NCBI GenBank assembly: GCA_044358545.1
Contig: JBIKNS010000001.1
Span: 1-50,105, forward strand
Source: Phycisphaerales bacterium
GTDB lineage: Bacteria; Planctomycetota; Phycisphaerae; Phycisphaerales; SM1A02
Reading direction: 5' to 3'
DNA length: 50,105 bases
Shown here: positions 23,860-43,915 of the stretch, one piece after another
Position numbering within the stretch: position 1 is the stretch's first letter
Layout of the letters: each line of letters begins with the position of its first letter
Made by a program: the position numbers and the translations under genes
The notes under the pieces: model-generated
The model's database searches: none
Seen by the model: only the letters and a program-made list of their open reading frames with translations
Told to the model about the DNA's origin: nothing

Positions 23860-24140
23860 CGGAGCGATCCTACTTTGATCTGCGGTGCCTGCCTGCGCGA
23901 TGGCAGGCATGATGCTGGCGGCAACCGAGCAGGCCATACGCCTGAGGCGCAACGCTCCGCGCCGCGGACATGCTGGGGAACGTGCGTGCACAACCGCCGA
24001 GCGGTCGGAACGGTCGTGCCCCGGTCGGGTGCCGCGCGTCCAGTCGTCGCCACAGGTGATGCCAAGCGCCGCCATGACGCTGCTACGACGGGGGCGGGGA
24101 CCGGGTTCGGAGCAATCGACCCTGCTAGCATTCCGACCCC

Positions 24141-25304
24141 ATGCCCGTGCCGATCAGCCAGATGTGGACCGTCGCGACCTACGTGCTGGGGCAGCGCCTC
24201 AAGGGGCGCACCAAGTACCCCCTGGTCCTGATGCTGGAACCCCTGTTCCGCTGCAACCTGGCCTGCGCAGGTTGCGGCAAGATCCAGTATCCGGCCCACA
24301 TCCTCAAGAAGCACCTCTCGGTGGATGAGTGCGTCAGGGCGGTGGAGGAGTGCGGGGCACCGATGGTGTCGATTCCCGGCGGCGAGCCGCTGCTTCACCC
24401 CGACATCGGGCAGATCGTGAAGGAGCTGGTCAAGCGCCGCAAGTACATCTACCTGTGCACGAACGCGCTGCTGCTCAAGGAGCGGCTCGACGAGGGCGTC
24501 TTCACGCCTTCCAAGTACCTCACCTTCAGCGTGCACATGGACGGCCTTGAGGAGAACCACGACTTCGCGGTGTGCCGCGAGGGCACCTACCAGAAGGCCG
24601 TGACGGCGATCCGCCAGGCGGTGAACTCGGGCTTCCGCGTCACGACGAACACGACCTTGTTCGATGGCGCAGACCCCAACGCGGTGCGCGACTTCTTCGA
24701 CGCGATGATGGAGATCGGTGTCGAGGGCATGATGGTCAGCCCCGGATACGCCTACGACAAGGCTCCCGATCAGAAGAGCTTCCTCAAGAGGAAGACGACG
24801 AACGAGCTCTTCGAGATGATCCTCTCCAACCGCCGCGACGGAAGGCGGCGGTGGCGCTTCAACCAGTCTCCGCTCTTCCTCGAGTTCCTCATGGGCAAGC
24901 GCGAGTACGAGTGCACGCCCTGGGGCATGCCGACCTACAACCTCTTCGGATGGCAGAAGCCCTGCTACCTGCTGCAGGAGGGATACGCGGACTCCTTCAG
25001 TGAGCTGATGCGCGACACCCAGTGGGAGAACTACGGTCGCGCGTCGGGAAACCCCAAGTGCGCCAACTGCATGGTGCACAGCGGGTACGAGGCGAGCGCC
25101 GTCAACCACACCTTCGCCAGCTTTGGCGGGCTCTTTGCCACCGTGAAGGCGATGGTCTTCAACGCGTACGCGAACCCGGTCGCGCGGCGCAAGCTTGATG
25201 AGGAGAAGACGCGTCCGCACGGGCCGATCGCGCATCTGGTGCAGCTTGGGTTTGCGACTGACATCGATGCGGCGCGTGGGATGGCCCGCAAGGGCGCGGC
25301 GTGA
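24141..25304 (+). CDS. hpnH: Adenosyl-hopene transferase (hopanoid side-chain radical SAM enzyme HpnH)
   Basis: 387 aa. The product begins MPVPISQMWTVATYVLGQRLKGRTKYPLVLMLEPLFRCNLACAGCGKIQYP, which includes the CX3CX2C radical SAM cluster. The conserved C-terminal Cys-rich region reads GNPKCANCMVHSGYE. Overall it looks like HpnH as I recall the family. Confidence 0.85.
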   Translation: MPVPISQMWTVATYVLGQRLKGRTKYPLVLMLEPLFRCNLACAGCGKIQYPAHILKKHLSVDECVRAVEECGAPMVSIPGGEPLLHPDIGQIVKELVKRRKYIYLCTNALLLKERLDEGVFTPSKYLTFSVHMDGLEENHDFAVCREGTYQKAVTAIRQAVNSGFRVTTNTTLFDGADPNAVRDFFDAMMEIGVEGMMVSPGYAYDKAPDQKSFLKRKTTNELFEMILSNRRDGRRRWRFNQSPLFLEFLMGKREYECTPWGMPTYNLFGWQKPCYLLQEGYADSFSELMRDTQWENYGRASGNPKCANCMVHSGYEASAVNHTFASFGGLFATVKAMVFNAYANPVARRKLDEEKTRPHGPIAHLVQLGFATDIDAARGMARKGAA

Positions 25305-29131: not shown

Positions 29132-29872
29132 CTAGCGCGCCTCGACCACATCGCCCTCCCGCAGGAGCGGCAAGGGGCATGATGCGGCATCGAAGTCGTC
29201 GGGTGCGTGAATGAGCCTGATCTTCCGGCGCACGTGCTCAGGCTGCGCCAGCAGGTCTGAGACCGGCGTATGGAAGGGGGGCGGACTGGTCTCGTGCACG
29301 ATGATGCCGCACCCGGCGAGCCAGTCCACATGGGCCTGCTCGAAGCCGGTGTCACTGCTCCACCCGATGCTCGACTCCCCATCGCGGAGGCGAAGCCCGA
29401 AGGTGGGGATCATGTGCGTGGTCTGGCGGCAGTCAACGTCGAGACCCGCGATGGTTGAGGGCTTCAAGGGGTCGAGCAGCCGGGGCTCGAAGTACTCATC
29501 AAGCGTGACGGTGCCTCCCTGGTCCATGGCAGGGGCCAGACGCTGCCACAGTCTCTCCATCACAGGGGGTGCGGCATGCACACGCGGTCTTGGTCGCGCA
29601 GGCTCCTGCCGCCGCAGGAGCCAATGCGTGAACCCGAACGCCTCCAGCCCGTTCACGTGATCGCCATGGAGGTGCGTGATGATCACGTCGAGGACGGACG
29701 GCACATCAAGCGGGAGCCCCGACTTCTCGCGCGCCTCGCGGAGCGCGCGGTGAATGGGATCCGGGCAGTCGATGAGCACGTGGCCCAGAGGACCTAGCAC
29801 CACGGCGGAACTGCCATAGTGCTGCGAGGAGAATGCATCCCCGCTACCGGTAATGACGATTCGCAGCGCCAC
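29132..29872 (-). CDS. MBL-fold metallo-hydrolase
   Basis: Track ORF 29132..30712 is heavily over-extended, running antisense to the next operon. The conserved part starts at VALRIVITGSGDAF (GTG at 29872), and an alternative ATG lies at 29974. The HxHxDH motif reads ITHLHGDHVNG. The exact start is uncertain. Confidence 0.65.
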   Translation of the reverse strand: MALRIVITGSGDAFSSQHYGSSAVVLGPLGHVLIDCPDPIHRALREAREKSGLPLDVPSVLDVIITHLHGDHVNGLEAFGFTHWLLRRQEPARPRPRVHAAPPVMERLWQRLAPAMDQGGTVTLDEYFEPRLLDPLKPSTIAGLDVDCRQTTHMIPTFGLRLRDGESSIGWSSDTGFEQAHVDWLAGCGIIVHETSPPPFHTPVSDLLAQPEHVRRKIRLIHAPDDFDAASCPLPLLREGDVVEAR

Positions 29873-29921
29873 GGGGCGGAGACTATGCGACCCAAGGCAG
29901 GGAGGAGATCCCGCAGCGAGT

Positions 29922-29935
29922 GGATCCGCGGATCC
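29922..29935. promoter_or_regulatory. Perfect 14-bp palindrome GGATCCGCGGATCC in the divergent intergenic region upstream of the barrel/giant/cyclase operon; candidate operator
   Basis: Read directly from the sequence; the reverse complement is identical. It sits about 40 nt upstream of the proposed start at 29975. It overlaps a GG-N10-GC arrangement (GG at 29930-31, TTGC at 29940-43). Confidence 0.3.
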
Positions 29936-29974: not shown

Positions 29975-31492
29975 GTGCAGGGAGCGCCCCGCGCGACACG
30001 TCGGAGGCGGAGAGTGGTGGCGGCAGCTTCGGTGGCCGCGGGCTGTGTCGTCAAGGTTGCGTCCGGTCAGGGCACGGGCTTCGATGCGGCCCAGCTCCAG
30101 AGGCAGCTGAACGTTGAGGACGCCGAGCTGAGGCAGGCCTTCTTCTCCTCGACCCCGATTGCCGAGCGGCTGCTCGTCGACTACGGCGGGACGTTCCGTT
30201 ACGCCTTCAACATCATCCAGACGCCGCAGAGCCAGAACCAGATCCTGAATGTCTTCGACCTCCGTCTCTTCACGCGCGTGGAGCTTGACGGTGGCCACCG
30301 GTTCTTCGGGCGACTTCGCTTCCAGTACAACGCGTGGGACTACCTCGACACGCGGGGCATCGGCGTCGACTCGACCGAGGCTGACTGGCAGGACCCGATC
30401 GGCGAGATCTACTGGTACGAGTTCGACTACGCGGGACTGATGGCGGCGCAGACCGGGCAGCGTCCTGACTTCAACGTGAACCTCAAGGTCGGACGCCAGT
30501 ACGTGATCTGGGGGCAGGGGCTTTCGCTCAGCACCTACATGTACGCGCTGATGGGCGAGGTGAGCGCTGGCGACTGGAAGGTGGGTGCGCTCTACGGCGT
30601 GACCGCGGGCTCCGACACCGTGGACTGGGATCTCTCGAGGCCCGGATTCGACACCGACACGGACCGGATGTACTGGGGGGCGCGCCTGGAGTACTCGGGC
30701 TTCGCCGGGCACCGGCCCTACGTCTACATGCTCGGTCAGTCCGACGGGAATGCAGGTCAGGTGGCCGACCTTCCGCCCGGTCTGGGGACCTTCCCGACCG
30801 AGTTCAACTACCGCTCCTACTACGCGGGATTCGGGTCCACGGGATCGCTAGGCAGCAACTTCATCTACCGGGGCGAAGTGGTGTACGAGTGGGGAGCCAC
30901 CGAGACGGACCCAGTGGATCGCAACGACCCGACGCTCGCCGTGCCCCAGGAGATGGCGAGCGTGTCCGCGCTTGCGGGTCTCGCGGGTCTGACGTGGCTG
31001 ACGCGGGACACTGGCGACACGCGTGTGGACATCCAGGCAGCGATCGGTTCGGGCGACGACAACCGACTGGATTCGGGAAACACGTTCGGCGGAATCCCGC
31101 CCGGTCGCACGGACCATGCATTCAACTCGCTCGGATACGTTAACACCGGTCTCGTGCTTGCCCCGGAGATCACGAACCTCTTTTGCCCGTCGATCGGTGT
31201 CAGTACGACGCCATTCCCGGGTGTCGCGGAGCTTCGGCAGCTGCGCGTCGGCGCGACCATGTTCGGGTTCATGAAGGTCGATGGCGACGCGCCAATCTCG
31301 GTCCTCACTACGAACGGAACGAACCTTGTGGGTTCGGAGATCGACCTGAGCCTGGAGTGGCGCCTCCTGAGCGACCTCGACGTCAATCTGAGGTACGGTG
31401 CGTTCATACCCAATCAAGCGGCCTTCGCGGGACTCAACAACCAGGACAACATCCGTCAGTTCCTGTACGTGGGGGTGACGTATGCGTTCTGA
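29975..31492 (+). CDS. Outer-membrane beta-barrel protein, alginate-export (AlgE)-like family
   Basis: 505 aa. The N-terminus has an Arg-rich n-region and hydrophobic core (RRRRRVVAAASVAAGCVVKVASG). Amphipathic beta-strand patterning alternates throughout. A segment LKVGRQYVIWGQGLSLS resembles the Alginate_exp signature as I recall it. The protein ends VGVTYAF, the aromatic C-terminal residue typical of BAM substrates. Confidence 0.6.
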   Translation: MQGAPRATRRRRRVVAAASVAAGCVVKVASGQGTGFDAAQLQRQLNVEDAELRQAFFSSTPIAERLLVDYGGTFRYAFNIIQTPQSQNQILNVFDLRLFTRVELDGGHRFFGRLRFQYNAWDYLDTRGIGVDSTEADWQDPIGEIYWYEFDYAGLMAAQTGQRPDFNVNLKVGRQYVIWGQGLSLSTYMYALMGEVSAGDWKVGALYGVTAGSDTVDWDLSRPGFDTDTDRMYWGARLEYSGFAGHRPYVYMLGQSDGNAGQVADLPPGLGTFPTEFNYRSYYAGFGSTGSLGSNFIYRGEVVYEWGATETDPVDRNDPTLAVPQEMASVSALAGLAGLTWLTRDTGDTRVDIQAAIGSGDDNRLDSGNTFGGIPPGRTDHAFNSLGYVNTGLVLAPEITNLFCPSIGVSTTPFPGVAELRQLRVGATMFGFMKVDGDAPISVLTTNGTNLVGSEIDLSLEWRLLSDLDVNLRYGAFIPNQAAFAGLNNQDNIRQFLYVGVTYAF

Positions 31493-32147
31493 GGTACGCA
31501 CCGCCTGGACGATCCGATGTCGCGCGCAATGCGTCGCGGCCCTCTTTCTCTCCGGTTGTGTGGTGCTCGTCGGTGCGGGGTGCGATCGGCAACTCGCGCA
31601 GACCTCCGTCACGGACCGTTTCCCCCTACCGGAGCAGGAGCTCGACCATGCGGAGACCCTTGAGTCGACCGCCGTGGTGACGAACAACGACATGCTTCAC
31701 GGGTTCATCGTGTTCACCAGCTCGGAGGATCCGTGGACGACCTACGCGCAGCGGGTCCTTGACGCCCGATCAAGGGGATGGGTCCCTGAGGACTGGCGAG
31801 AGCCCGCGAACGAAAGCGCGACGGTGGGCCGGATGGCATCGATCGCCTCGCATATCGTCGAGATCAGGGGTGGGCTCTCGTTTATGATTCTCGGACCTAC
31901 CCCCCGATATGCCCTCCGCGAACTCATTTATCAGGACATTCTTCCGGCCCGAACCGAGAACCAGTCACTATCTGGGTTGGAGTTCACGGATTTCTTGAAC
32001 CGGCTCAGCAGAATGTCACGGTTGAAGGAGAGCGCGGCTGCGCGGGCAGCGTCCCGCGACAGCGCCGTGCCCCGTCCGCCATCGCTTCCGCCCTCGGGAA
32101 GGTCCGAACCGCCCTCGACAGACTCGACAGAAAAGACCTCGACATGA
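31482..32147 (+). CDS. Small lipoprotein of unknown function with a Ser/Pro-rich tail
   Basis: 221 aa. The N-terminus carries a lipobox (ALFLSGC). I recognise no domain. Its start overlaps the barrel gene by 11 nt, and its stop overlaps the giant gene's start (ATGA). The second half has visibly lower GC than its surroundings. Confidence 0.55.
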   Translation: MRSEVRTAWTIRCRAQCVAALFLSGCVVLVGAGCDRQLAQTSVTDRFPLPEQELDHAETLESTAVVTNNDMLHGFIVFTSSEDPWTTYAQRVLDARSRGWVPEDWREPANESATVGRMASIASHIVEIRGGLSFMILGPTPRYALRELIYQDILPARTENQSLSGLEFTDFLNRLSRMSRLKESAAARAASRDSAVPRPPSLPPSGRSEPPSTDSTEKTST

Positions 32148-35100
32148 GCAATCCGCAGAGCCACAGATTCATCGCGACCGCCTCAATGGCCGTCGCGTCG
32201 CTCACCATGCGTGTGGCCGAGTGTGCGTTGGCGCAGGAGACGTCGCCTGCCGATGCAGTGGCCGCAGCTGCGGCACCTGCGGGCACGGTTGTGCCCTCGG
32301 CCAACGCGACGCAGCTCCAGGCTCGCGTCATCGATGTGTCAGGCAAGGCGCGTTGGCGCGCGTCGCCGGATGGGGAGTGGAAGGATGCGGCGGTCAATGA
32401 CGACCTGTCGCCGGGTGCGGAGATTCGCACTGGCATGCGGTCGCGCGTGACGCTTCGCTTCCGCAACGCGACGGTGCTTGTCGACTCGAGCACGAACTTC
32501 GCGATTCCCACGATCGAGCAGGAAGGCGATGTGCTTCGCACGATTGCTGCCGTGCGCAGCGGACGCGCCGACTTCAAGGTTGACAAGGTCGGTCTGCAAA
32601 ACGACTTCAAGGTCGTGACGCCAAGCACGACGCTCGCTGTACGCGGAACGTCCTTCTCCACCATCTCGGGTCCGCTCAAGGGTGTCGAGATCGTGGGCTC
32701 GCGCGACAACGCGATCCGCGCGATCGAGGTGCGCTACGCCGCGCTCAACCAGACGGTCGAGATGTCTGGTGGCGCTGAGGCCAAGAGCAGCTCCGAGACG
32801 CCCAATCCCACCGAGAACGCGCTCAGTACGACATTCAATGCGCCGCAGTCTGGCATGGTGGCCAGCAAGGAGGAGGCGCAGCAGGGAGCGCTGAGCGGCA
32901 CGAGTGCCCCACAGACCCAGCGCCAGTCGACCACGACAGTCGCGGCGGTGGCGCAAGTCAGGCAGGACATCAACGCGGCTGAGCGTGGCGAGAGCGGCGG
33001 CAGCAGCAACCTGGCGCTCCTGATCGACATTGCGCGTGCGGCCGGGTTCCGTGGTGTGGCACAGGACGCGGGCGCGCTGCAGGCTCAGTCGCTGCAGGAT
33101 GTGCTGAATGCGGCACTTCAGGCGCAGGACCGTTTCGACGAGGCGACGGTAGCTGCGGATGGATTCGAGTCTGCGCGTGACGCAGCGATTGATGCGCTGG
33201 GGCAAGCGGATTCCGCGATGCAGGCGGCGCTCGCGTCGGCAGGCCTGGCGGTGTCCGGATCGCAGGCCGTGCGCAGCGAAGGTGCGTCTGCGCTCTCCGC
33301 CTTTGCGGCCCGCGAGGGATCTTCGGCGATCGCCGCACGCGTGTCCGCGGCGGGCGCGGCGGCACAGGCTGGATCAGGAGCCGCGGGCGAGGCCAGCGCG
33401 CACGTCGGGGGTGCGCAGTTGCGTGTGGCGGATGCGACGGCGCTCGCCGCTCCCTTGGCGGGACTGTCTGATGAGTTCAATCTGGCGCGCAGCGCGCTTG
33501 AGGCGGCCCGCGCAGCTATCGCTGGCCATACGGCAGATGTCGAGCAACTCCGGAGCGTGGCGCAGGCGGCGAGCGAGGCCGCGCAGGCGCTTGCGGCGGG
33601 TCGGAGCGTGCCGCAACTGACGCAGTCGGCGCTGCTTGCAGCGCAGGCGGCGGTTGAGGCTGCGCAGCGATTCGTGGAGGCCGGGACGGCCCGAGACCAG
33701 GCAGAGGGACTCGCAGCGGCAGCCCTCGAGCGTGCCCAGGAAATCGTCCGTACCGCGCTTGTGCAGGAGATCGAGGCTGCGAACTCCGCGCTCGCGTCCA
33801 CGGCGTCGGCAGTGTCTGCCGCAGTGAGCGCATCAGGGCAGGGTGAGGATGGGGCAGCGCTGCTCGACAGTGCGGTGAACGCCTTGCTTCAGGCCGAATC
33901 GGGCGAGCAGGGCGCGACACTCGCGGCCAGTGCGGCGTCCGATGCGAAGAACGCGGCCGAAGGCCGACGTCTTGCGGCGCAGTCTCAAGCTGATGTTGCG
34001 CGAAACCTCGGTGATCTGGTGAGCACCGAGCGTGCGTCTGCGCTGGTGGAGATGCAGAACGCGCTCGCCGCGCTGGAGCTGACGAGGGTGCACGCAGAGG
34101 CGACCTCCGAGTACGTACGAGCTGTTGACGAGGCGCTCACGCAGCCAACGCCCGATCTCGGGGCGGCGGGCACGGCCGCGACGCAGGCACTCGCGCAGGC
34201 AGATCTCGCGCAGGTCGAGTCGGGGTCGGCGACTCAAGCCGCGGGGCGCGCGGATGCGGCGGCCACTGTGGCGGGGGCGATTGCCGGATCCGAGGAGTTC
34301 ACCGGCTCCGAGTCCCTGTACGGCGATCTTGTGGATGCGATTGCAGGCGATGTCGCGGATGCGGGCGAGGCGCGCGATGATGCGTCCGCATCGGCATCGA
34401 CCGCAGCATCAGGCGCATCGGGAGCGGTGTCGCTGGCGGATCAGCTGGAGGCGGCATTCGGCTCGAGTGCACGCGACGCGGTGGCGCTTGCCGAGCGGCT
34501 GGGGCAGGATGCGGCGCAGCGCGCCTCGCAGGCCCAGCAGGCCTACGAGGATGCGCAACGCGCGTACGACGATGCGCTTTCCGCAGGACGTAGCTCCGCG
34601 CAGGTGACGGTGTGGGCCGCAGTGCGTGCGCTCGCCGCGCAGGCCCGGCAGGACGCTGACAAGGCGCTGGCTGATGCGCAGGTCGCACGAGACCTCGCGG
34701 CGGCTGCAGTTGAGCAGGCGCAGCAGGCCGACGAGCGGGTGGCCGTTGCGACTGGATCGTCCTTCGCTGCTGCGGCGCAGAACGCGGGCGCAGGGCAGCT
34801 GGTCCCGCTGCAGTCTGTGCTCGCGCTCGCTGAGGAGGCGCACGGGCACTTCGAGCAGTTGAGCACGGCCGCCGATGACTTTGCCTCGCTTCGATCGACC
34901 GCAGAAGATGCGCTCGCTGCGGCGCGTGCAGCGCTCGATGCGGCTGAGCAGGGTGCCCTCGATGCGCAGTCCGCGAACGAGGGTGTGAGCGACAGCGCGC
35001 GTGCGGCATTCCGTGCATTCGCATCAGGCGAGGCCGATGCATCCGTACGTGGTCACGTGTCTGCGGCCGCCGCTGATGGCAGTGCTGCCGCCGCGGCGGC

Positions 35101-38100
35101 AATGGCGGCAGGCGAGCGCGTCGCAGATGCTCAGTCCGGACTGGCTGGCGCCGAGAGCGCGACTGCGTTCTTGGTGGATGCTGCGGATCGTTTCGCGGCG
35201 GCGCGCGTGGCGCTCGACAGCGCGAGCGCCGCGATGACCAGTCCAGCGGCGCAGGTGTCCGACCTTCGCGATGCGGCGGTTGCGGCCAACGCTGCAGCCC
35301 AGTTGCTGGCTGGCTCCAGGAACATCCCGCAAGTGCAGCAGTCAGCGTTGGCGGCAGCGCAGGCGGCAGCGGAGGCGGTCCAGCGCGCGGTAGACGCTGG
35401 TGCGGCACGGGATGATGTCGCAGCCAAGGCTGCGCTCGCGCTCCTCCGTGCACAGTCCGTGGTGCGAGGTGCGATGGCACAGGAGATCGAGTCTGCGTCA
35501 CAAGGCGTGGCGGCCATGCAGTCGCGTCTGGCGGATGCATCTGAGGCGGCGGCGCAGGCACAGTCGCACATCAACCTGCTTGATCAGGCGATAGAGGGCA
35601 TGCTCGTGGCGCGCACGGGTGCCGAGGAGGCTTCTGCCGCGGCGAGTGCATCGCTGGCGTTCCAGGGACTGGCCGAGGGTCGGCGTGTGGCCGCTCAGGC
35701 GCAGGCCGACATCGCCGCGGGAGTTGGTGCGCTCGTGAGCAGCGACCGCGCCACAGCGCTCGCCGAGATGCAGCGGGCACTTGATGCGCTCGCACGCTGC
35801 GAGCTCAATGCGGCGGCAACATCAGCCCTTGCCAGTCAGGTGAGCCAGGCGCTCGGCCAGCAGTCGCCCGACGTCGGAGCGGCAGCGACAGGCGTGGCCC
35901 AGGCTGTCGCGCAGGCCGTGCTTGCGGATCACGAGGCAAGCCAATCGACGGCAGCAGCCGGCCGCGCGGACGCGGCGGCTCTGGCAGCCGCGGCGGCGGC
36001 ATCCGGCGAGGCACTCGTCCAGTCCGAGTCGCTCTACGCCAGCGCGGTGCAGGCCGCATCCGGCGACGTCGACGGTGCGGAGGCGGCACGTGACATCGCT
36101 GCCGATGCGGCACTCGACTCCGCAGGAGGTGCGGCGGCGGTCGCCACGATGGCGAGTGCGCTCGATGCAGCCTTCTCCCGGGATTCGGACTTCAGCTCCA
36201 GCGACGCGGGAGCCGCGCTTGCTGCAGCGCAGCAGCTTGCGGCTGATGCGGCGAATCGCGCGGCGGACGCCAACGCCGCGTACATCGCGGCGCAGGCGGC
36301 CTACGAGGGCGCGATGGCTGCGGGCCGGAGCTCCGCGGAGGTGACGGTGTGGGGGGCCGTACGTGCGCTCGCATCGCAGGCGCGGCAGGACGCTGATGCG
36401 GCACTCGTGGCGGCTGCCGAAGCGCGGCGCATCGCGAGCGCTGCGATGGCTGAGTCGATCGCCGCAGATGCAGCGGTGGTGAGCGCCGGCTTCCCGGCGA
36501 CGGGGTCGCGGTCTTCTGCCGCGGCCGAGTCGGCTCGTGCGTCGGCGGCGTCGGGCATGCAGGATGTGCTCGCACTGGTGCAGGCGCACCAGCAGGTGCT
36601 CGATGAGTCGGGAGCCGCGGTGGCTCAGGCACTCTCCACGCTCGGCAGCACGCTTTCGGCGACGGAGGTTGCGCAGAACTCGGCGAGCGGCGTTGCCGAC
36701 CGCCTTGCAGGTGCGCGGGACGCGATCATGTCATTCATCGCCGCGGATGAGGTCGGGGACGTTCCCGACTCGCAGATCGACGGCCTGCTCTCCTACCTGC
36801 TGAATGCGCGGAACGAGGGATTGGGTCTGGCGCTTGCTGCCGGCGCGAGTGCTGCGGACGCAGGGGCAGCCGTGGCCGGACATGCCGATGCCATTGCAGC
36901 CGCAGAGGCGGCCGCCGCGCAGTCGCAGGCCAGCGGCATTCAGGCGATTCTCGATCAGGTGGCGGCGTCCCTGGGGACGACCGAGGGCGACGCGAGATTG
37001 GCGCTGCTGCGCACGCTCAGGGACCGGGCGCTCGACCGGTCAGCGGATGTGTCCGGCAGCGCGGCTGAGACTGCCATCAGTGCTGCGGACGCGGGAAGTG
37101 CGCAGGCATCGTCCAGGTCTGCCTTGGCTGCGGCGGGGCTGTTCCCGACCTGGGGCGTTGGAGATGTCGATGCGTCATTCGGCAGCGATGTCGAGGGGGC
37201 AGCGGGCGCAGCTGCCGCGGCTGCCTTGAGTGCAAGCGATGCGGCACGTGGCGCGACGGTGCTTGTCGGCGTGCACGGTGCGGCTGCGGGTGCCGAGTCA
37301 TCAGTGCGTGCGAGCGAGAGCGGCATGGCTGCTGCGTACGAGGCGCGCGCCTTGGCGGAGGCCGCAGCAGACGTTGCTCGCTCAGCTGCGCAGCAGATGT
37401 CCGGAGCCGATGGCTCGGCGCGTGCGCAGGCATTGGCGTCGATCGCGCGGGTCCGCGGCCAAGTGACGGCCCTGGCTGCCCAGGCGAACTCCGACATCTC
37501 CATGGCTGGCAGTCGGCTCGATGCACTGCTGTCGCAGCTTGCGTCGGGCACGGTGGATGTGTCGGATGCGCGGGCTGGTCTCGCGGACGCCCAGGTGGCT
37601 GCATCTTCGGCGCGGGAAGGTGCGGACGAGGCTACGGCCGCCAGCGCTGGCGCCCTGTCGGTATCGGCGCAGTTCGAGCAGCTTGTGGCGTCGCTCGGTG
37701 TCGGCGGCGCGCAGGCAAGGGAGACGCTCGATCAGCTCGACCAGGTGCAGCTCGCAGCTGCGGAGTCGTGGCGCCAGTTGGCGGACGACCAGCGTGCGAT
37801 CGTGGACGCGCACGTCGCGTCCGTGCTCGCGGCTGCGGCAGGGGGCCAGAGCGTGGCGATCGCAGACCTCGCCTTCGCGGCGGCGTGGATCCGTCAGGTC
37901 ACGCTCGAGGAGTACCAGGCGCTTCAGACGTCGATCGCACTCGCGCAGGCTGCTCGTGCGGACGCGGCAGGCGCCGTAGGCGAGTTCGAGGCGGCCGCGC
38001 AGTCTGCTGCGGCACCGGTGGTGAGCGCTGCAGAGGATGCGGTCGCGGCCGCCGATGCGTTCCTGCGGCAGGTCATGGCGATCCAGATCGAGGTGGCCAT

Positions 38101-39793
38101 CGGCGAGCGTGCGATCGACGCTGAAGTCGCACGTGTCGCTGCAGGTGCGGTTGAGGTGCAGGTCGCGTCGCGCGTCACGCAGGTGGCCGCGACGGTGACG
38201 GCGATGCGCGATGCCATCGCCGAGTATCAGGGTGCCACGGCCTCGATGTCTGCGGCCTTGGATGCAGCCAACGCAGCCCGCGGCACGGCGGAGTCGAGGC
38301 TGCAGGATCTGGAGCTGGCGCTGTCATCTGCCGATGCGCGGCTCACGTCACTGAGGGTGAGCTTGGGCAACGGCGACCGTGCATCGGCCGGAAGCGACGG
38401 CACTGCGATCTCGGATGCCGCATCCGGGGCGGGCACCCTGGCGCAGGCCGCGGACGCAGCCCGCGCCGATGCACTTGCCGCACTTGCCGGGATCGACGCG
38501 TTGGGCGCGTCTGCGGCAGGTGCGGTTCTCCAGCTCGACGCGCAACTGCCCGACGCGGCTGGGCACCAGTTTGCGCTCTCATGGCATCAGGAGCAGGCTG
38601 AGGCTGCGCAGAATGATGCGTCGGCTGCGTCAGATGGCGTGGATGCAATGGTGGCCGAGGCGGGTACGGCGCGCAGTGGCGCGCTAGGCGCCCACGCACT
38701 CGCGGCAAGCGGCGAGGCCCTGAGCCGTGCCAGTGCCGCGCTCGCGGGGATTCTGTCTGCAGGCGGATCGCTTGAGAGCGCGCTCTCCGATGCGCAGTCG
38801 CTCGATCGCGGCCTCGCTGGATCGGTGGCGGCGCAGGCTGCGGACGTCCGAGACTGGGTGTCGAGCCTCGACTACGGATCGTCATCGATTCCAGCGGTCG
38901 TGGCCGACCGGGTGGTCGCCATGTCCGGCGTCGCGCAGGGGGCGATCGGCGCCTACGACGCGCGTACCGCTGCGCTCGCAGGCCGCGAGGCTGCCGAGCA
39001 GGCGCGTGACCGCGCGATCGGCGCCAACTACGTGACACTGGGCGCACTTGAGTCGCACCAAGCGGCCATGGTGGGGGTGAACCAGGAGTACGGCACAGCA
39101 CTCGATCAGCGCGGCGTCGCTGCAGTGGAGTGGATGAACGCAAGCCTCTTCCGCATTGAGGCGGGCTACTGGCTGCAGCAGACGCTCAGTTACGTCGAGG
39201 CATCGGACGCATCGTCTGCGGCATGGGCCGCCAGCTCGGCGGACGAGGGCGCGACCGGCGCTGAGAATGCCGCGGGCCGGGCTGACTACGCAGCGGCGCT
39301 CGCGGAGGCGGCAGGAGAGCGCGCAGTCGAGTGGGCCGGGATCAGCGCAACAGCGTTCGAGGTCGCCAGTGCGGCGGCATCGCAGGCCGAGAGCGAGCGT
39401 GACGCCGCGGCAGGGCTTGCCGCCGACGTCGTCGTGGCCGGTGGCGCATCGCAGAGCTTTGCAGCCGCTGCCGAGCAGTTCGCAGCGATTGCCGCGACTG
39501 CGGCTGCGGGGGACGCATCTGCGTTCGCTCGGCAGGCGCGCGACCAGGCGGTGGCGCAGATCGTGCTGGCGGAATCGGCACGGGATGCGGCACAGGCTGC
39601 TGCGGCGAGCGCGCGTAGCCACGCCGGAAAGATCGTCTTCGGCGCCGTCGCCGCGAAGGCCAATCAGACGGTTGCCCTCGCCTCGCAGGCCCGCGACTAC
39701 GCCGATGCCGCGCTCGTCCAGGCGGTTGAGGCGCGCACTGACGCCAACTCCGCGGTCGTTGCGGCGTCGTCGGCGGCGGGCGGCACGAACTGA
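32144..39793 (+). CDS. Giant (2,549 aa) secreted protein: signal peptide, FecR domain, then about 2,300 aa of alanine-rich, proline-poor, repeat-containing region predicted to be helical
   Basis: An uninterrupted 7.65-kb frame. The N-terminal signal reads MAVASLTMRVAECALA-QE. A well-formed FecR-type domain spans roughly aa 60-190 (nt about 32321..32714): GAEIRTGMRSRVTLRFRNATVLVDSSTNFAI...VRSGRADFKVDK...FKVVTPSTTLAVRGTSFS. The remainder is dominated by A/Q/S/D/E/R/L/V. About one residue in three is Ala in a 100-aa stretch I counted, and Pro, Cys and aromatic residues are rare. The start is ATGA-coupled to the upstream lipoprotein gene. Confidence 0.8.
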   Translation: MSNPQSHRFIATASMAVASLTMRVAECALAQETSPADAVAAAAAPAGTVVPSANATQLQARVIDVSGKARWRASPDGEWKDAAVNDDLSPGAEIRTGMRSRVTLRFRNATVLVDSSTNFAIPTIEQEGDVLRTIAAVRSGRADFKVDKVGLQNDFKVVTPSTTLAVRGTSFSTISGPLKGVEIVGSRDNAIRAIEVRYAALNQTVEMSGGAEAKSSSETPNPTENALSTTFNAPQSGMVASKEEAQQGALSGTSAPQTQRQSTTTVAAVAQVRQDINAAERGESGGSSNLALLIDIARAAGFRGVAQDAGALQAQSLQDVLNAALQAQDRFDEATVAADGFESARDAAIDALGQADSAMQAALASAGLAVSGSQAVRSEGASALSAFAAREGSSAIAARVSAAGAAAQAGSGAAGEASAHVGGAQLRVADATALAAPLAGLSDEFNLARSALEAARAAIAGHTADVEQLRSVAQAASEAAQALAAGRSVPQLTQSALLAAQAAVEAAQRFVEAGTARDQAEGLAAAALERAQEIVRTALVQEIEAANSALASTASAVSAAVSASGQGEDGAALLDSAVNALLQAESGEQGATLAASAASDAKNAAEGRRLAAQSQADVARNLGDLVSTERASALVEMQNALAALELTRVHAEATSEYVRAVDEALTQPTPDLGAAGTAATQALAQADLAQVESGSATQAAGRADAAATVAGAIAGSEEFTGSESLYGDLVDAIAGDVADAGEARDDASASASTAASGASGAVSLADQLEAAFGSSARDAVALAERLGQDAAQRASQAQQAYEDAQRAYDDALSAGRSSAQVTVWAAVRALAAQARQDADKALADAQVARDLAAAAVEQAQQADERVAVATGSSFAAAAQNAGAGQLVPLQSVLALAEEAHGHFEQLSTAADDFASLRSTAEDALAAARAALDAAEQGALDAQSANEGVSDSARAAFRAFASGEADASVRGHVSAAAADGSAAAAAAMAAGERVADAQSGLAGAESATAFLVDAADRFAAARVALDSASAAMTSPAAQVSDLRDAAVAANAAAQLLAGSRNIPQVQQSALAAAQAAAEAVQRAVDAGAARDDVAAKAALALLRAQSVVRGAMAQEIESASQGVAAMQSRLADASEAAAQAQSHINLLDQAIEGMLVARTGAEEASAAASASLAFQGLAEGRRVAAQAQADIAAGVGALVSSDRATALAEMQRALDALARCELNAAATSALASQVSQALGQQSPDVGAAATGVAQAVAQAVLADHEASQSTAAAGRADAAALAAAAAASGEALVQSESLYASAVQAASGDVDGAEAARDIAADAALDSAGGAAAVATMASALDAAFSRDSDFSSSDAGAALAAAQQLAADAANRAADANAAYIAAQAAYEGAMAAGRSSAEVTVWGAVRALASQARQDADAALVAAAEARRIASAAMAESIAADAAVVSAGFPATGSRSSAAAESARASAASGMQDVLALVQAHQQVLDESGAAVAQALSTLGSTLSATEVAQNSASGVADRLAGARDAIMSFIAADEVGDVPDSQIDGLLSYLLNARNEGLGLALAAGASAADAGAAVAGHADAIAAAEAAAAQSQASGIQAILDQVAASLGTTEGDARLALLRTLRDRALDRSADVSGSAAETAISAADAGSAQASSRSALAAAGLFPTWGVGDVDASFGSDVEGAAGAAAAAALSASDAARGATVLVGVHGAAAGAESSVRASESGMAAAYEARALAEAAADVARSAAQQMSGADGSARAQALASIARVRGQVTALAAQANSDISMAGSRLDALLSQLASGTVDVSDARAGLADAQVAASSAREGADEATAASAGALSVSAQFEQLVASLGVGGAQARETLDQLDQVQLAAAESWRQLADDQRAIVDAHVASVLAAAAGGQSVAIADLAFAAAWIRQVTLEEYQALQTSIALAQAARADAAGAVGEFEAAAQSAAAPVVSAAEDAVAAADAFLRQVMAIQIEVAIGERAIDAEVARVAAGAVEVQVASRVTQVAATVTAMRDAIAEYQGATASMSAALDAANAARGTAESRLQDLELALSSADARLTSLRVSLGNGDRASAGSDGTAISDAASGAGTLAQAADAARADALAALAGIDALGASAAGAVLQLDAQLPDAAGHQFALSWHQEQAEAAQNDASAASDGVDAMVAEAGTARSGALGAHALAASGEALSRASAALAGILSAGGSLESALSDAQSLDRGLAGSVAAQAADVRDWVSSLDYGSSSIPAVVADRVVAMSGVAQGAIGAYDARTAALAGREAAEQARDRAIGANYVTLGALESHQAAMVGVNQEYGTALDQRGVAAVEWMNASLFRIEAGYWLQQTLSYVEASDASSAAWAASSADEGATGAENAAGRADYAAALAEAAGERAVEWAGISATAFEVASAAASQAESERDAAAGLAADVVVAGGASQSFAAAAEQFAAIAATAAAGDASAFARQARDQAVAQIVLAESARDAAQAAAASARSHAGKIVFGAVAAKANQTVALASQARDYADAALVQAVEARTDANSAVVAASSAAGGTN
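33094..36556 (+). repeat. Two tandem, diverged copies of a 1.71-1.75-kb (about 571-583 aa) coding repeat inside the giant gene; a third, more degenerate unit starts at about 36557
   Basis: Unit starts align: LQDVLNAALQAQDRFDEATVAADGFESA (nt about 33094), LQSVLALAEEAHGHFEQLSTAADDFASL (about 34807) and MQDVLALVQAHQQVLDESGAAVAQAL (about 36557). Internal landmarks recur in the same order in units 1 and 2. They are: AGRSVPQLTQSALLAAQAA / GSRNIPQVQQSALAAAQAA; AEGRRLAAQSQADVA / AEGRRVAAQAQADIA; AAGRADAAA; SESLY; and AGRSSAQVTVWAAVRALAAQARQDAD / AGRSSAEVTVWGAVRALASQARQDAD. By eye, about half the positions are identical. Confidence 0.7.
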
Positions 39794-39835: not shown

Positions 39836-42553
39836 GTGAGGATCCTGCGTAGCACAGCATTCGTCACCGGCATGGTCGCGACCCTCGCGGTGTGGCTGGC
39901 CGCGGCGGTCGGCGCATTCGACAAGCTTGAACTGCGAAGCGAGGATTCGCGCTTCCAGTCCTCGGCGCGACGGCAGGAGCCGCTGTCCGAGGAGATCGCC
40001 CTCGTCGCGATCGATGACGGTGCGCTCGCGTCCATCGGACGATGGCCGTGGCCGCGCACGCTGCTGGCATCAGCGATCGACGAGCTTGCGCGCGCTGGTG
40101 CGCGCACCGTTGCGCTCGACTTGCTGCTGAGCGAGCCTGACGCCGCAAACGCCGGAGCTGACGAGTCACTGGCCAGAGCTCTGGCGGATCGCACGATGGG
40201 CGGAGCGTCCCTTCGCGGGGTCGTGGGCGTCAGCACAGAGGAGGACGAGCGTCTCAAGGGACCGTGGCGGCTTCCTGGCGGCGATCACGAACTGAAGCTG
40301 CTCCTCGACGCGCTTGGCGAGGCGATTGACATGGAGCCCGCGGACGCCGCCGCGAAGGCGGGCCTCTCCACAGCGCGCCGCGAGTCCTTCCTTGCGCAAC
40401 CGATCAGGTTCAAGCAGATGGCGGCATGGCGCGTGCTGCGCAAGCTCATGGCGCCCGGGACGATGCCGTCCATGGACGACTTCATGCTGGTCCTCACGAG
40501 CGGGCGCACCAACCTCGGGGAGTTCGATGCGCGCGTGGCGGTCGACGAGATCTATGAGCGAGGTCGGGCATGGCACGCGCTCAAGCCCAAGCTCGGCGCT
40601 CCGATTGGGGGGGGCGCGCAGGACATCTTCGGCGAGGTGTCCGGCGCGGAGTCCTTCTCGATCGAGCCCTCCGTGCCCGTGCTTGCGGAGGCCGCAGCGG
40701 GTGTCGGCGTGGTCACAAGCGATGGATATGACGAGGACGGGGCAAAGCGTCGGAGCAAGGCAATCTGGCCGGTGCCAGGGGGCAGATGCGCGCAGTTCGG
40801 GCTCGCCGCCGCGGCAACCCACCTCGGGCTGCCTCCCGGCAGCATTGTCCAGGAGGAGCGCCGCATCGCGGTCGGCGACGTCGAGCTTCCGGCCGCCGCC
40901 GGCACCATGCTGCTCGACTGGCCGTCGTCGACGTTCGAGAGCTTCGCCGACTTCTCCGATGACCCTTCGGCGAGGCGGCCCACCATCTCGATCGCCGCGC
41001 TGATCAGCCTCTCGCGCCAGCGCACGGTGCTCGCGGGCATCGAGCGGGAGCGTGATGAGGCACTTGGGCGCGTGATGGCGCAGGTGGTCGTTGACGCACG
41101 CGCGCGCACGGACGCGGCGGTGCGCGCATCCGAGGCCCAGCGGCTGAGCGACCTCCGCATCGATGACCAGATCCCCCATGCCATTGAGCCGGACGTTGCG
41201 CGGTTCCTCGAGCTCGAGGAGAGCGCGTCCGATGGCGCTGCGCGCCTGGCCGAGGCATCGCAGAGGCTCGAGTCGATGGTGAAGGATCGACTCGTGTTCG
41301 TCGGCTGGATCGCCTCCGGTGCGCTGGCGGATCAGGTCACCACGCCGTACGGCCCACGCACGCCGGGGGTGTTCGTGCACGCGGTTGCCGCAGACATGGT
41401 GATTGGCCGTCATTCGCGCGCAGTCGCTCCCGCGTGGGTGTCTCCGACAGGCATCGTGGTGCTTGGTCTCGCGGCGTCGCTGGCCGCGGCGCTGCTGGGC
41501 GGATTCTGGTCGTTCCTCGTTACGGCGGGCATTGTCGGGCTCTGGTGGTTTGTCGCGGCACGCATGGCGTTCGACGAGTGGCGGGTGCTTGTGCCGCTGG
41601 TGGCTCCTGGCTCGTCGCCCGTGGTCGCGTGGGCGGCGAGCACCGCTGCGGTTGCGGTGTCGAATGCGCGCGACCGCGCCCGGATCACGCGGCAGTTCGC
41701 GGCACGGGTCTCGCCGCAGCTTGTCGAGCGACTCGCAGGGGATCCAGATGCGCTCTCGATGACCGGAGAGGAGCGCGAGATCACGGTGGTGTTCGGCGAT
41801 CTCGCGGGGTTCACGTCGATCGCGGAGTCGCTCGGCGGTCCTGGCGTCGTGGCCACGCTGAACCTCTACTTGGGGCGGCTTGCGGACGAGCTGGTCGATC
41901 GCGGCGCATACGTGAACAAGTTCCTTGGCGACGGGTTCATGGCGTTCTGGTCGGCCTTTGGCGCCGAGCCCGAGCAGGAGCGGCTCGCGGCGGAGAGTGC
42001 GGCGGCATGCCAGGCTGCCGTGGAGGAGCTCGGCTCGAGGGTGGAGCCTGGAGCGCCGCGCATTTCGCTGCGCATCGGCATCGCCACAGGTATGGCAGTC
42101 GTGGGTGACTGCGGCGCGCCGCCGCGACTCAACGACTACACCGCAATCGGCGACGTGGTGAACCTCTCGGCGCGGCTGGAGAGCGCGAACAAGCAGTTCG
42201 GCACGAAGGTGCTCATGGATGGCGCCACGCGCAGGGGCATCGACCGCATCGCGGCACGCACGCCTGGGGCGCAAGTGCCGCGCATGCGCTGCCTCGGCCA
42301 GGTCGTGGTGGTCGGACAGTCGAAGCCGATCGACCTGTACGAGGTGGTCGACGCATCCGCGAAGGACGAGTGGATCGCCGACACCGAAGGTGCGGTGCGC
42401 GCCTTCCGTGAGCGTGACCTTCCGGGCAGCCGGGTGCTCTGGCAGGCGTTCGAGTCGAGATGGGGTGCATCGAAGCTCTCGCAGGCATACATCGCAGCGA
42501 TCGACGCCGGTGACGGCGCCGAGGATGGCGTGCTGCGTCTGCGCGCGAAGTAG
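39836..42553 (+). CDS. CHASE2 sensor domain-containing class III adenylate/guanylate cyclase
   Basis: 905 aa. An N-terminal TM is followed by CHASE2 (IALVAIDDGALASIGRWPWPRTLLASAIDELARAGARTVALDLLLSEPD...) and then a cluster of TM helices at about aa 500-600. The cyclase catalytic domain contains REITVVFGDLAGFTSIAE, NKFLGDGFMAFW, LRIGIATGMAVVGDCG and GDVVNLSARLES. It lies 42 nt downstream of the giant gene on the same strand. Confidence 0.9.
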   Translation: MRILRSTAFVTGMVATLAVWLAAAVGAFDKLELRSEDSRFQSSARRQEPLSEEIALVAIDDGALASIGRWPWPRTLLASAIDELARAGARTVALDLLLSEPDAANAGADESLARALADRTMGGASLRGVVGVSTEEDERLKGPWRLPGGDHELKLLLDALGEAIDMEPADAAAKAGLSTARRESFLAQPIRFKQMAAWRVLRKLMAPGTMPSMDDFMLVLTSGRTNLGEFDARVAVDEIYERGRAWHALKPKLGAPIGGGAQDIFGEVSGAESFSIEPSVPVLAEAAAGVGVVTSDGYDEDGAKRRSKAIWPVPGGRCAQFGLAAAATHLGLPPGSIVQEERRIAVGDVELPAAAGTMLLDWPSSTFESFADFSDDPSARRPTISIAALISLSRQRTVLAGIERERDEALGRVMAQVVVDARARTDAAVRASEAQRLSDLRIDDQIPHAIEPDVARFLELEESASDGAARLAEASQRLESMVKDRLVFVGWIASGALADQVTTPYGPRTPGVFVHAVAADMVIGRHSRAVAPAWVSPTGIVVLGLAASLAAALLGGFWSFLVTAGIVGLWWFVAARMAFDEWRVLVPLVAPGSSPVVAWAASTAAVAVSNARDRARITRQFAARVSPQLVERLAGDPDALSMTGEEREITVVFGDLAGFTSIAESLGGPGVVATLNLYLGRLADELVDRGAYVNKFLGDGFMAFWSAFGAEPEQERLAAESAAACQAAVEELGSRVEPGAPRISLRIGIATGMAVVGDCGAPPRLNDYTAIGDVVNLSARLESANKQFGTKVLMDGATRRGIDRIAARTPGAQVPRMRCLGQVVVVGQSKPIDLYEVVDASAKDEWIADTEGAVRAFRERDLPGSRVLWQAFESRWGASKLSQAYIAAIDAGDGAEDGVLRLRAK

Positions 42554-42574: not shown

Positions 42575-43915
42575 CTAGGCAAGCCGCCGGACGATGACGG
42601 CGGTCCGGTCATCCGCCGTGGAGGGCGCCTGGCTGAACGAGAGCGCGCCAGCGTCAAGGGCGTCGAGGATCTCGGAGCAGGGGCGGTCGCGGAGCGTGCG
42701 CACCACGTCAAGCACCGCGGGGTCTCCCCACTGCGTCCCGTCCGGGCTCATGGCCTCGTAGTAGCCATCCGTGAGCACAAGAAGCAGGTCGCGCGGACTC
42801 AAGTTGATCCGCTGCGACTGTTCGCACGGGAAGCCGAAGTCGATCACGCCGAAGGGTGGCGCATCCGTGTCGATGGGCTCAAAGCGATCTTCCGCATAGC
42901 GGTACACGAAGAGCGGTCCCTGGCCGGCACTGAAGCTCTCGACCGAGTGCGTGCGCCCATCGAGAAGCCCGAGCCACGCGGTGACGAAGCGCCCTGAGGG
43001 CAGGTCCTGGCAGAGCTGGTTGTTGACCTCGCGTGCCGTGTCGAGCAGTCCGGTGCGCAATCGCGCGCCAACGCGCGCCATGCCACGCGCCTGCATCGAC
43101 GAGAGTGCCGGTCCCACCCCGTGGCCTGTGGCGTCGGCGAGAAGGAACATCACGCGTGCCGCGGCGGCCCCTTGCGCAACCACACCACTGTCGTCGATGC
43201 CGATGCAGTCGTACGCGTCACCGCCGCAGTCCTCGGCCGGCGTGCTGCGCGCCGCAATCTCGTACCCGTCGACCTGCGGAAGCGCGGTGGGGAACGATCC
43301 CTGCTGGATCGTGCGCGCCACATTCATCTCCTCCTCGAGCTTGGCGCGCGCGAGATGGTCCTCGATCAGCGCTGCACGGCGCAAGGCGACAGCGGCTTGC
43401 GCGGCAATGCCCCGCGCGAGCCACTCGTCACGGCCGTCAAAGGGTCCGCTCGCCTTGTTGAGCACCTGCGCCACGCCGACGAGCGCCCCCTCATGGTCCA
43501 TCAGGGGAACGGCGAGGACGCTGGTCGTGCGGTATCCGGTGCGCTGGTCCACGGACCGGTCGAACCGCGCGTCGGCGTACGCGTCAGGAATGTTGACGAT
43601 CTCGCGCGATTCCGCCGCAGCGCCTGCGATGCCGCGGTTGGCAGGGATCCTGATCACCTGTCCGCCGCCGCCGATGCCGTGCGCGACGTGGATGACAAGC
43701 TCGTGCGTCGCGGCGTCGTACGTGAACACGCTGGCCCGGTCCGCGGTGAGGAGGTCGCGGAGCGCATCGATGATGATGCTGAGCACCTGCGACAGGTCGG
43801 ACGACTCGCCAAGTCGCCGCGAAATGGCGAGCAACTTCTCGAGTGCGGCGATCGCGGACAGCTCGGCGCTGGCCGGCTGCAGCACGGTCCCATGACCAGT
43901 GCGCTGTGCGCTCAT
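42575..43915 (-). CDS. GAF domain-containing PP2C/SpoIIE-family serine phosphatase
   Basis: Track ORF 42575..43987, with the start set to the ATG at 43915 (MSAQRTGHG), which forms an ATGA overlap with the upstream gene's stop. The GAF region reads LSQVLSIIIDALRDLLTADRASVFTYD...VAQVLNK. PPM/SpoIIE motifs are present: CGGDAYDCIG, FLLADATGHGVGPAL, LLVLTDGYYEA. Confidence 0.85.
   Translation of the reverse strand: MSAQRTGHGTVLQPASAELSAIAALEKLLAISRRLGESSDLSQVLSIIIDALRDLLTADRASVFTYDAATHELVIHVAHGIGGGGQVIRIPANRGIAGAAAESREIVNIPDAYADARFDRSVDQRTGYRTTSVLAVPLMDHEGALVGVAQVLNKASGPFDGRDEWLARGIAAQAAVALRRAALIEDHLARAKLEEEMNVARTIQQGSFPTALPQVDGYEIAARSTPAEDCGGDAYDCIGIDDSGVVAQGAAAARVMFLLADATGHGVGPALSSMQARGMARVGARLRTGLLDTAREVNNQLCQDLPSGRFVTAWLGLLDGRTHSVESFSAGQGPLFVYRYAEDRFEPIDTDAPPFGVIDFGFPCEQSQRINLSPRDLLLVLTDGYYEAMSPDGTQWGDPAVLDVVRTLRDRPCSEILDALDAGALSFSQAPSTADDRTAVIVRRLA

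Follow-up and report, generated by a model that had tools for sequence, protein, structure and literature searches.

The window analysed here comprises the first 50,105 nucleotides (nt) of contig JBIKNS010000001.1 from a Phycisphaerales bacterium (assembly GCA_044358545.1), and its subject is a giant gene on the forward strand together with the four-gene cassette in which it lies. Gene 1 (29975..31492, +) encodes a 505-amino-acid (aa) outer-membrane beta-barrel of AlgE/Alginate_exp-like type that ends in VGVTYAF and passes the Pfam Alginate_exp threshold (E 2.6e-9; 36.8 bits, cutoff 25.2). Gene 2 (31482..32147, +) was read from its translation as a probable lipoprotein of 221 aa with the lipobox FLSGC; it had no Pfam or NCBIfam match, and its homologues have lipobox-like N-termini. 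Gene 3 (32144..39793, +) is the giant open reading frame (ORF), with 2,549 open codons plus a stop. According to its ORF, Pfam match, homologues and AlphaFold2 models, it specifies a FecR-headed, Ala-rich, acidic, predicted helical-rod protein. Gene 4 (39836..42553, +) begins 42 nt downstream and encodes a 905-aa protein combining a CHASE2 sensor (Pfam, E 3.8e-38) with a class III nucleotide cyclase (Guanylate_cyc, E 7.5e-11). No terminator-like site was found between 29000 and 44000. Sequence comparison and structure prediction show gene 3 to encode a putatively Sec-exported, soluble, acidic, helical accessory protein of a conserved envelope-signalling cassette in Phycisphaerales-type planctomycetes.

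A preliminary description, made from the letters alone, had portrayed gene 3 as an Ala-rich, Pro-poor, low-complexity protein behind a single FecR domain, and the composition fits this portrait. Ala accounts for 785 residues (30.8%), followed by Ser (9.8%), Leu (7.5%) and Gly (7.5%), and from residue 300 on each 100-aa block contains 24-42 Ala. Pro occurs 27 times (1.1%), with just 14 beyond residue 290, and Cys (2), Lys (13) and Trp, Phe and Tyr together (2.9%) are also scarce. The tail is evenly acidic, with a net charge of -142 (-6.3 per 100 aa), and contains no segment resembling a transmembrane helix. The term low-complexity was only partly apt: the tail has a biased composition (3.24 bits of entropy per 100 aa vs 3.8-4.0 for neighbouring genes) without being repetitive, and a 572-aa duplication had been overlooked. 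Tandem Repeats Finder detected no DNA tandem repeat in the region, and no Rfam family was found there.

Since the region is GC-rich, a spurious ORF or a pseudogenised expansion had to be weighed. The GC content at the three codon positions (GC1, GC2 and GC3) of gene 3 was 0.77/0.59/0.75, and the minimum at GC2 fits this frame as coding, which answers a check proposed in the preliminary description. Each of the five alternative frames contains 21-48 stops, and the ORFs inside them are Arg/Pro-rich shadows, as had been noted. Coupling to the upstream gene was likewise evident, the start of gene 3 overlapping the stop of gene 2 (gacATGAgc, an ATGA overlap). On the other side, the GC3 of 0.75 lies close to GC1 and under the 0.83-0.90 of the neighbours, because the tail takes more A/T-ending codons. 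GCA and GCT supply 29% of the Ala codons (comparison genes: roughly 3-25%, in most cases 12-16%), and Asp is encoded by GAT in 52% of cases; the favoured codons GCG, CAG and GAG are the same in gene 3 and its neighbours. Moreover, in one relative (L067:6108-9306) the gene is broken into two overlapping ORFs of 470 and 622 aa, which marks it as a frameshift pseudogene or else reflects a misassembly. Between 32000 and 42000, across the giant gene and the cyclase gene, GC skew is elevated (+0.085 to +0.12); in the giant gene this probably stems from G-starting codons (Ala, Gly, Asp, Glu and Val) and not from a replication signal.

The homologues settled this question. A search covering 5.8 billion clustered proteins found 35 relatives of 1,447-2,557 aa, of which 34 carry a precomputed FecR assignment (PF04773). 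Ala is abundant in every one of them (22-30%), whereas Lys and Pro are scarce, and the combination of FecR head and Ala-rich tail thus does recur. Intact relatives with 23-69% identity occur in dozens of metagenome-assembled genomes (MAGs) labelled Phycisphaerales or Planctomycetota, and in the cluster of relative P0012 alone, contigs of many assemblies contribute 16 sequences of 1,727-1,744 aa that are near-identical (>=90%). The ratio of nonsynonymous to synonymous substitution rates (dN/dS; Nei-Gojobori, vs three relatives with DNA sequence) was about 0.07-0.10 in the head and about 0.15-0.20 in the tail for the closer pairs, indicating purifying selection on the tail that is more relaxed than on the head. 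With the tail dN/dS well below 1, the ORF can be neither a GC artefact nor a decayed expansion. Together with the stops in the other frames and the confident helical models described below, these data led us to reject the spurious or pseudogenised ORF, whose probability we regard as negligible. Accordingly, the view that the ORF is no GC artefact held up, and the lineage-specific pseudogenised expansion that the preliminary description had named as its possible undoing did not. By its conservation pattern, the giant ORF is a real gene under selection. Database names for family members read "hypothetical protein" only, no description of the family was found in the searchable literature, and the family appears confined to uncultured freshwater Phycisphaerales-type planctomycetes.

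The protein can be divided into five parts. A Sec-type signal peptide without a lipobox (32144..32233, aa 1-30, ending VAECALA/QE) was recognised from the sequence, from a helix at residues 13-30 in the AlphaFold2 model and from similar N-termini of homologues. It is followed by a conserved N-terminal head (32321..32923, aa ~60-260) that contains the motif NDFKVVTPSTTLAVRGT and the sole Pfam match of the protein, FecR (aa 93-172, 32420..32659; 27.2 bits, cutoff 24). All 34 invariant columns of a 36-sequence alignment fall within aa 67-286. A Ser/Thr/Pro/Gln-rich linker of low predicted confidence (32924..33007, aa ~261-288) joins the head to the acidic, Ala-rich, apparently all-helical rod (33008..39568, aa ~289-2475), which was delimited by models, periodicity, charge and dN/dS. 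The C-terminus forms a conserved module (39569..39745, aa 2476-2534, containing ARSHAGKIVFGAVAAK and ASQARDYADAAL), recognised by alignment and a hidden Markov model (HMM). The earlier statement that no recognisable domain follows FecR therefore stands as regards Pfam, but this conserved module of about 60 aa had escaped notice. Searches against PDB sequences returned no match for the head (aa 1-300) at E<=1 and none for the tail at E<=0.1; a profile of the head matched solely MtxA (4z29) at E 0.016, too weak to use. In NCBIfam, only a sub-threshold Lsa33 match to the head was found (22 bits vs a cutoff of 420, E 7e-5).

AlphaFold2 models were built from 36-sequence alignments for aa 1-900 and aa 1483-2549. 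In the first segment (mean predicted local distance difference test score, pLDDT, 77.9), beta strands were predicted at aa 60-146 (pLDDT ~90), and aa 289-881 formed a continuous series of helices of 100, 43, 24, 24, 44, 129, 43, 47, 8, 41 and 59 residues with pLDDT mostly >90 (aa 330-880 >90). The second segment (mean pLDDT 72.9) was well over 90% helix, with helices of up to 116 residues; pLDDT was 85-95 for aa ~1983-2549 and 40-70 for the helical aa 1483-1980. About half of the tail was thus modelled at pLDDT >90. The predicted tail helices are mostly 24-129 residues long with short turns between them, and breaks coincide with the rare Pro residues 437, 490, 668/670 and 888. In addition, hydrophobicity in the tail has a periodicity of 3.5-3.6 residues, with a spectral power of 1.9-2.2, where shuffled sequences reach at most 1.40 +/- 0.1. 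The models and the periodicity fit a tail of amphipathic helices lying side by side in antiparallel bundles, neither disordered nor a single 345-nm helix. The expectation of a helical tail was thus supported; of the two forms offered for it, the continuous helix was not borne out and the several-fold shorter folded bundle is the relevant picture. From the helix lengths, and with a bundle topology deduced in the same way, the rod would measure an estimated 110 nm or so if three helices run abreast. The segment aa 149-264 is the family's most conserved stretch (GRADFKVDKVGLxNDFKVVTPSTTLAVRGT..., NDFKVVTPSTTLAVRGT) despite a pLDDT <50, which could be due to a shallow alignment or to folding only against a partner.

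Foldseek searches of both models against the PDB returned generic helical matches with template modelling scores (TM-scores) of 0.05-0.2, among them UmbC, designed repeat proteins and the ClyA family, and we rejected these as homologues since the similarity is only generic. An alpha-pore-forming toxin of the ClyA/Hbl/Smh type was also rejected, with Foldseek E >=0.057 and a tail without a hydrophobic segment.

The rod varies greatly in length among relatives. A head-only HMMER scan over 1.84 billion representatives matched 226 proteins at E<=1e-10, of which 124 reached E<=1e-30. In a neighbour-joining tree of 89 heads (midpoint-rooted, without support values), the base is occupied by rod-less forms of 300-450 aa with tails not enriched in Ala, next come clades of 560-730 aa and 830-950 aa, and the crown holds forms of 1,160-2,557 aa with tails of 23-33% Ala. 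Some short crown sequences are probably fragments from contig ends. The rod thus ranges from 0 to ~2,250 aa, and the C-terminal module was common to every one of the 28 rod-bearing forms sampled (669-2,549 aa), as scored with an HMM whose training sequences overlap those scored. The module occurs once and terminally (independent E-value 1e-11 to 1e-19), except that P0031 and, with a weaker signal, P0041 carry further copies internally. As the module is shared and the head conserved, the family architecture is, from the alignments, one of two conserved end-pieces flanking a variable middle. A C-terminal motif (GRSSAEVTVW...) thought to recur at module ends was dropped, its HMM not being significant.

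Lengthening by segmental duplication is evident in several lineages. In the giant protein, tiled blastp revealed one internal repeat only, a tandem duplication of aa ~294-900 vs ~866-1482 with an offset of 572 residues and 38-55% identity. The first copy of the ~572-aa module (33023..34738, +, aa ~294-865) is present only here and in P0001, and the second (34739..36589, +, aa ~866-1482) is orthologous to the single module of relatives of ~1,975 aa. In a tree of these units, both first copies cluster and the single units of the ~1,975-aa relatives nest with the second copy of the giant protein, indicating that the duplication arose once and that the first copy was later lost in the ~1,975-aa lineage. 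Tandem duplications with other offsets were found in P0011 (836), P0020 (323), P0031 (~581) and P0034 (~600), and by these comparisons segments of 320-840 aa were duplicated independently in at least five lineages. In P0011 (2,557 aa), residues 333-695 and 1169-1531 are 73-89% identical; copies up to 89% identical indicate a recent duplication, and lengthening appears to be ongoing. No older internal periodicity was detected among six tail segments by hhalign (probability <10%).

Such plasticity raises the question of whether the rod is a largely neutral spacer, in which only the head and the C-terminal module would be functional and the rod would be a tolerated, self-expanding helical filler of uninformative length. 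Selection solely against misfolding and aggregation would account for its acidic, Pro-poor, helix-forming composition. The gains and the loss over a range of 0 to ~2,250 aa agree with this, as do the relaxed codon usage and higher dS of the tail and the fact that tail sequences are very poorly conserved from clade to clade while their composition is kept. The tails of relatives such as L027 are less Ala-rich, and this lower Ala content may track genome GC. However, the tail dN/dS of 0.15-0.20 is well under neutrality, half of the tail is modelled as defined helices at pLDDT >90, and long forms are kept intact in many species, where a 7-kb gene is costly in genomes reported to be reduced in these planctomycete lineages (PMC6461901). 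We consider a neutral spacer unlikely.

The setting of the gene is strongly conserved. A scan of one genome per species yielded 65 loci, essentially all from MAGs that bear the label Phycisphaerales or Planctomycetota. Most of them came from lakes (Mendota, Trout Bog and Baikal being among the sources) or rivers, and none of the loci could be identified as that of a cultured isolate. The barrel and lipoprotein genes lie ahead of the FecR-type gene in 47/47 loci that extend far enough upstream, and the CHASE2 cyclase gene comes after it in 36/37 loci that extend far enough downstream. The lone exception, L059 (12.5 kb), has a short FecR-type gene of 342 aa with no CHASE2 cyclase gene after it. 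The FecR domain of the supposed sensor head is confirmed by Pfam, but its setting is not Fec-type; it is a barrel/lipoprotein/FecR/CHASE2 cassette, which the preliminary description had not recognised.

Six loci were counted with two FecR-type genes in tandem. Such pairs sit between the lipoprotein and the cyclase in L032, L016, L019, L020, L030, L035 and L055. In L032 both are giants (L032:5635-10845 and L032:10977-16592, stop-to-stop ORFs of 1,736 and 1,871 codons), and in the others a copy of ~700-800 aa is followed by one of ~870-940 aa with its own signal peptide. One assembly, GCA_046766315.1 (L001 and L004), carries two divergent full cassettes on separate contigs with the same flanking synteny, encoding P0002 (1,974 aa) and P0017 (1,834 aa), which suggests a mixed bin rather than paralogues. 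The length of the CHASE2 protein (~886-905 aa) is much the same whether or not the locus has a rod. Its CHASE2 match in the window takes 532 residues for a 257-position Pfam profile, indicating about 270 residues of insertion in the periplasmic domain, part of which looks helical and charged.

The wider gene order is also kept around four relatives of 23-69% identity. Upstream of the cassette lies a gene on the reverse strand (29135..29926, -) for a metallo-beta-lactamase (MBL)-fold protein, possibly a cyclic-nucleotide phosphodiesterase (Lactamase_B_2, 35.2 bits, cutoff 27; Apyc1, 43.7 bits, below the cutoff of 50), and this gene is syntenic in the four relatives inspected. Downstream, a GAF-SpoIIE (PP2C) phosphatase gene (42575..43987, -; Pfam), syntenic in distant relatives, is a candidate output responsive to cyclic nucleotide monophosphates. 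The MBL-fold hydrolase, the GAF-PP2C phosphatase and the cyclase would form a set to make, read and degrade a cyclic nucleotide. Further genes nearby encode a rhomboid protein, citrate synthase and an FG-GAP protein. A few genes upstream, a radical SAM protein with DUF3463 (24141..25304, +) is encoded, syntenic in relative L001; this architecture is presumably that of the hopanoid-pathway enzyme HpnH.

The Pfam FecR match and a gene for an extracytoplasmic function (ECF) sigma factor 8 kb upstream (23236-24075, -) would suit a classical Fec-type anti-sigma regulator, of the FecR/PupR kind, with an unusual extension. The sigma gene, however, is on the opposite strand with five predicted genes between, the protein has no cytoplasmic anti-sigma domain and no transmembrane anchor, Pfam found no DUF4974/STN-binding domain, and the neighbours are a barrel, a lipoprotein and a CHASE2 cyclase and not a TonB-dependent transducer. 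With neither those domains and anchor nor a FecI/FecA operon found, three of the four features that define the class are lacking, and the anti-sigma identity was rejected as very improbable.

The function to which we give the highest credence, at about even chances, is that of a periplasmic co-sensor or tether of the CHASE2 cyclase. This is argued by analogy, because FecR-domain genes adjoin CHASE2 sensor genes elsewhere, because the outer-membrane barrel NsrA serves CHASE2 cyclases in S. meliloti and because Fec-type systems use a periplasmic relay. The head would work in the periplasm together with the CHASE2 domain, the barrel/lipoprotein pair or both, and would relay an outer-membrane event to the cyclase, much as FecR does from FecA and NsrA does to the S. 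meliloti CHASE2 cyclases. The rod may act as a spacer or tether holding head and C-terminal module tens of nanometres apart, or may present a large anionic interaction surface. The cyclase would put out cAMP or cGMP, to which the adjacent GAF-PP2C phosphatase would respond and which the MBL-fold hydrolase nearby would degrade.

Several observations weigh against the co-sensor or tether. Short family members keep the whole cassette without the rod, indicating that the rod is an elaboration, not the core of the system, and is not needed for the core function. By inspection, the sizes of the partner genes show no obvious co-variation with rod length. The GC3 and codon use point to weak codon selection, which may mean low expression. 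Moreover, AlphaFold2 confidence is low for aa 149-264 (32588..32935, pLDDT <50) and for aa 1483-1980, and all relatives derive from MAGs or metagenomes.

A more specific proposal, which we think improbable, is that the rod is a length-tunable tether or ruler whose ends bind different envelope layers or partners, so that the cyclase would report envelope spacing, strain or contact. One end would engage the inner-membrane CHASE2 cyclase and the other the barrel/lipoprotein pair at the outer membrane or beyond, and lineages would retune the span by gain or loss of helical modules of 320-840 residues. If true, this would constitute a mechanosensory or geometric input to planctomycete cyclic-nucleotide signalling. 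The planctomycete periplasm is unusually wide and variable and can be greatly enlarged, so the earlier point that the length of the protein far exceeds the width of the periplasm carries less weight in this group.

A surface fibre or adhesin was also considered, in which the acidic tail, once exported by Sec, would cross the outer membrane, perhaps through the AlgE-like barrel, and serve outside the cell as an anionic antenna or adhesin, the head signalling from the envelope to the cyclase. The tail is evenly polyanionic and soluble, the adjoining barrel passes the Alginate_exp threshold and has relatives that export a polyanionic polymer, the head has a weak similarity to the Leptospira surface adhesin Lsa33 (far under the cutoff), and the extracellular scaffold UmbC was the best Foldseek match of both models. 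NsrA, too, has been proposed to sense a basic protein via acidic surface loops (PMC7529298). By contrast, inspection of the C-termini and Pfam revealed no recognisable autotransporter, two-partner secretion (TPS), type IX secretion (T9SS), PEP-CTERM or sortase-type C-terminus; family members without a tail have the barrel and the lipoprotein just as regularly, and the Foldseek TM-scores of 0.1-0.2 amount to generic helical similarity. A surface fibre is therefore a doubtful reading.

Most genes of uncultured freshwater Phycisphaerales-type planctomycetes lack a functional assignment. The extracytoplasmic sensor domain CHASE2 is widespread among bacteria, and to our knowledge neither its ligand nor its activation mechanism is known; nor do we know of an established role for FecR-domain genes beside CHASE2 sensors, or of any such system with a demonstrated mechanism. 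The family offers a natural length series, in which the same head and cassette come with rods of 0 to ~2,250 residues and relatives differ by one module, making it testable whether the distance between two conserved ends matters for cyclase signalling. It is also a clean example of the growth of a giant bacterial gene via segmental duplication under purifying selection, and the finding would gain in significance if rod length proved relevant to signalling.

With regard to known systems, FecR/PupR resemble the giant protein in their FecR domain and in the general scheme of a relay across the periplasm from an outer-membrane protein to an inner-membrane output. They differ in having an anti-sigma domain, a transmembrane anchor, an STN-binding domain, FecI and a TonB-dependent transducer, none of which pertains to the giant protein, and the output here is a nucleotide cyclase.

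As architecture, very long all-alpha rods of side-by-side helices, in secreted or structural proteins, are likewise found in spectrin, in Ebh of S. aureus and in UmbC of the Streptomyces umbrella toxins (PDB 8w20). The tandem repeats of ~100-130 aa typical of spectrin and Ebh (106 or 126 aa) were not found here, where there is a single 572-aa duplication and the predicted helices, up to 129 aa, are much longer than those of spectrin-type repeats. Foldseek gave no spectrin or Ebh fold match, a plectin spectrin repeat appearing at E 2.3. UmbC was the top match (E 1e-4 and 5e-3), but with TM-scores of 0.10-0.21 and a root-mean-square deviation of 76-93 A, and neither its toxin, lectin or wall-anchor domains nor Umb-type neighbours are present. 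The giant protein is thus comparable in manner of working to spectrin/Ebh rods but not a member of that class.

In S. meliloti, the CHASE2 cyclases CyaD1, CyaD2 and CyaK depend on the outer-membrane barrel NsrA to perceive a basic protein signal (PMC13001267, PMC7529298). That system likewise joins an outer-membrane beta-barrel to inner-membrane CHASE2 cyclases, with acidic surfaces proposed to bind a basic ligand, whereas it has no reported need for a FecR-domain rod protein. A tblastn search of the barrel and the head against a plasmid collection, assumed to include the S. meliloti megaplasmids, returned no match either to NsrA or to annotated FecR-CHASE2 pairs, and no homology to NsrA was shown.

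The closest likeness is to COG4254-type proteins. The known CHASE2-linked FecR proteins are described as small, with LysM and/or FecR domains. FecR-domain genes adjoin CHASE2 sensor genes in Burkholderia (PMC5192318), and in Campylobacterota a FecR-domain gene lies beside a CHASE2 cyclase gene in a cluster that includes a cAMP phosphodiesterase (PMC9239204), where an MBL-fold hydrolase is adjacent here. Common to the LysM-FecR proteins of the Burkholderia 'BiofilmReg' operon and P. aeruginosa, to those of Campylobacterota and to the present cassette is a secreted PF04773 protein encoded immediately upstream of a CHASE2 sensor in the same orientation; here, a predicted exported FecR-domain protein is encoded 42 nt upstream of the CHASE2 gene on the same strand. 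Pfam found no LysM domain (E<=0.01) N-terminal to FecR here, and the cassette additionally has the helical rod of ~2,200 aa, the C-terminal module, the AlgE-like barrel and the lipoprotein. The FecR-domain partner of a CHASE2 sensor is therefore known; the rod of up to ~2,250 residues, the terminal module and the history of module gain and loss are new.

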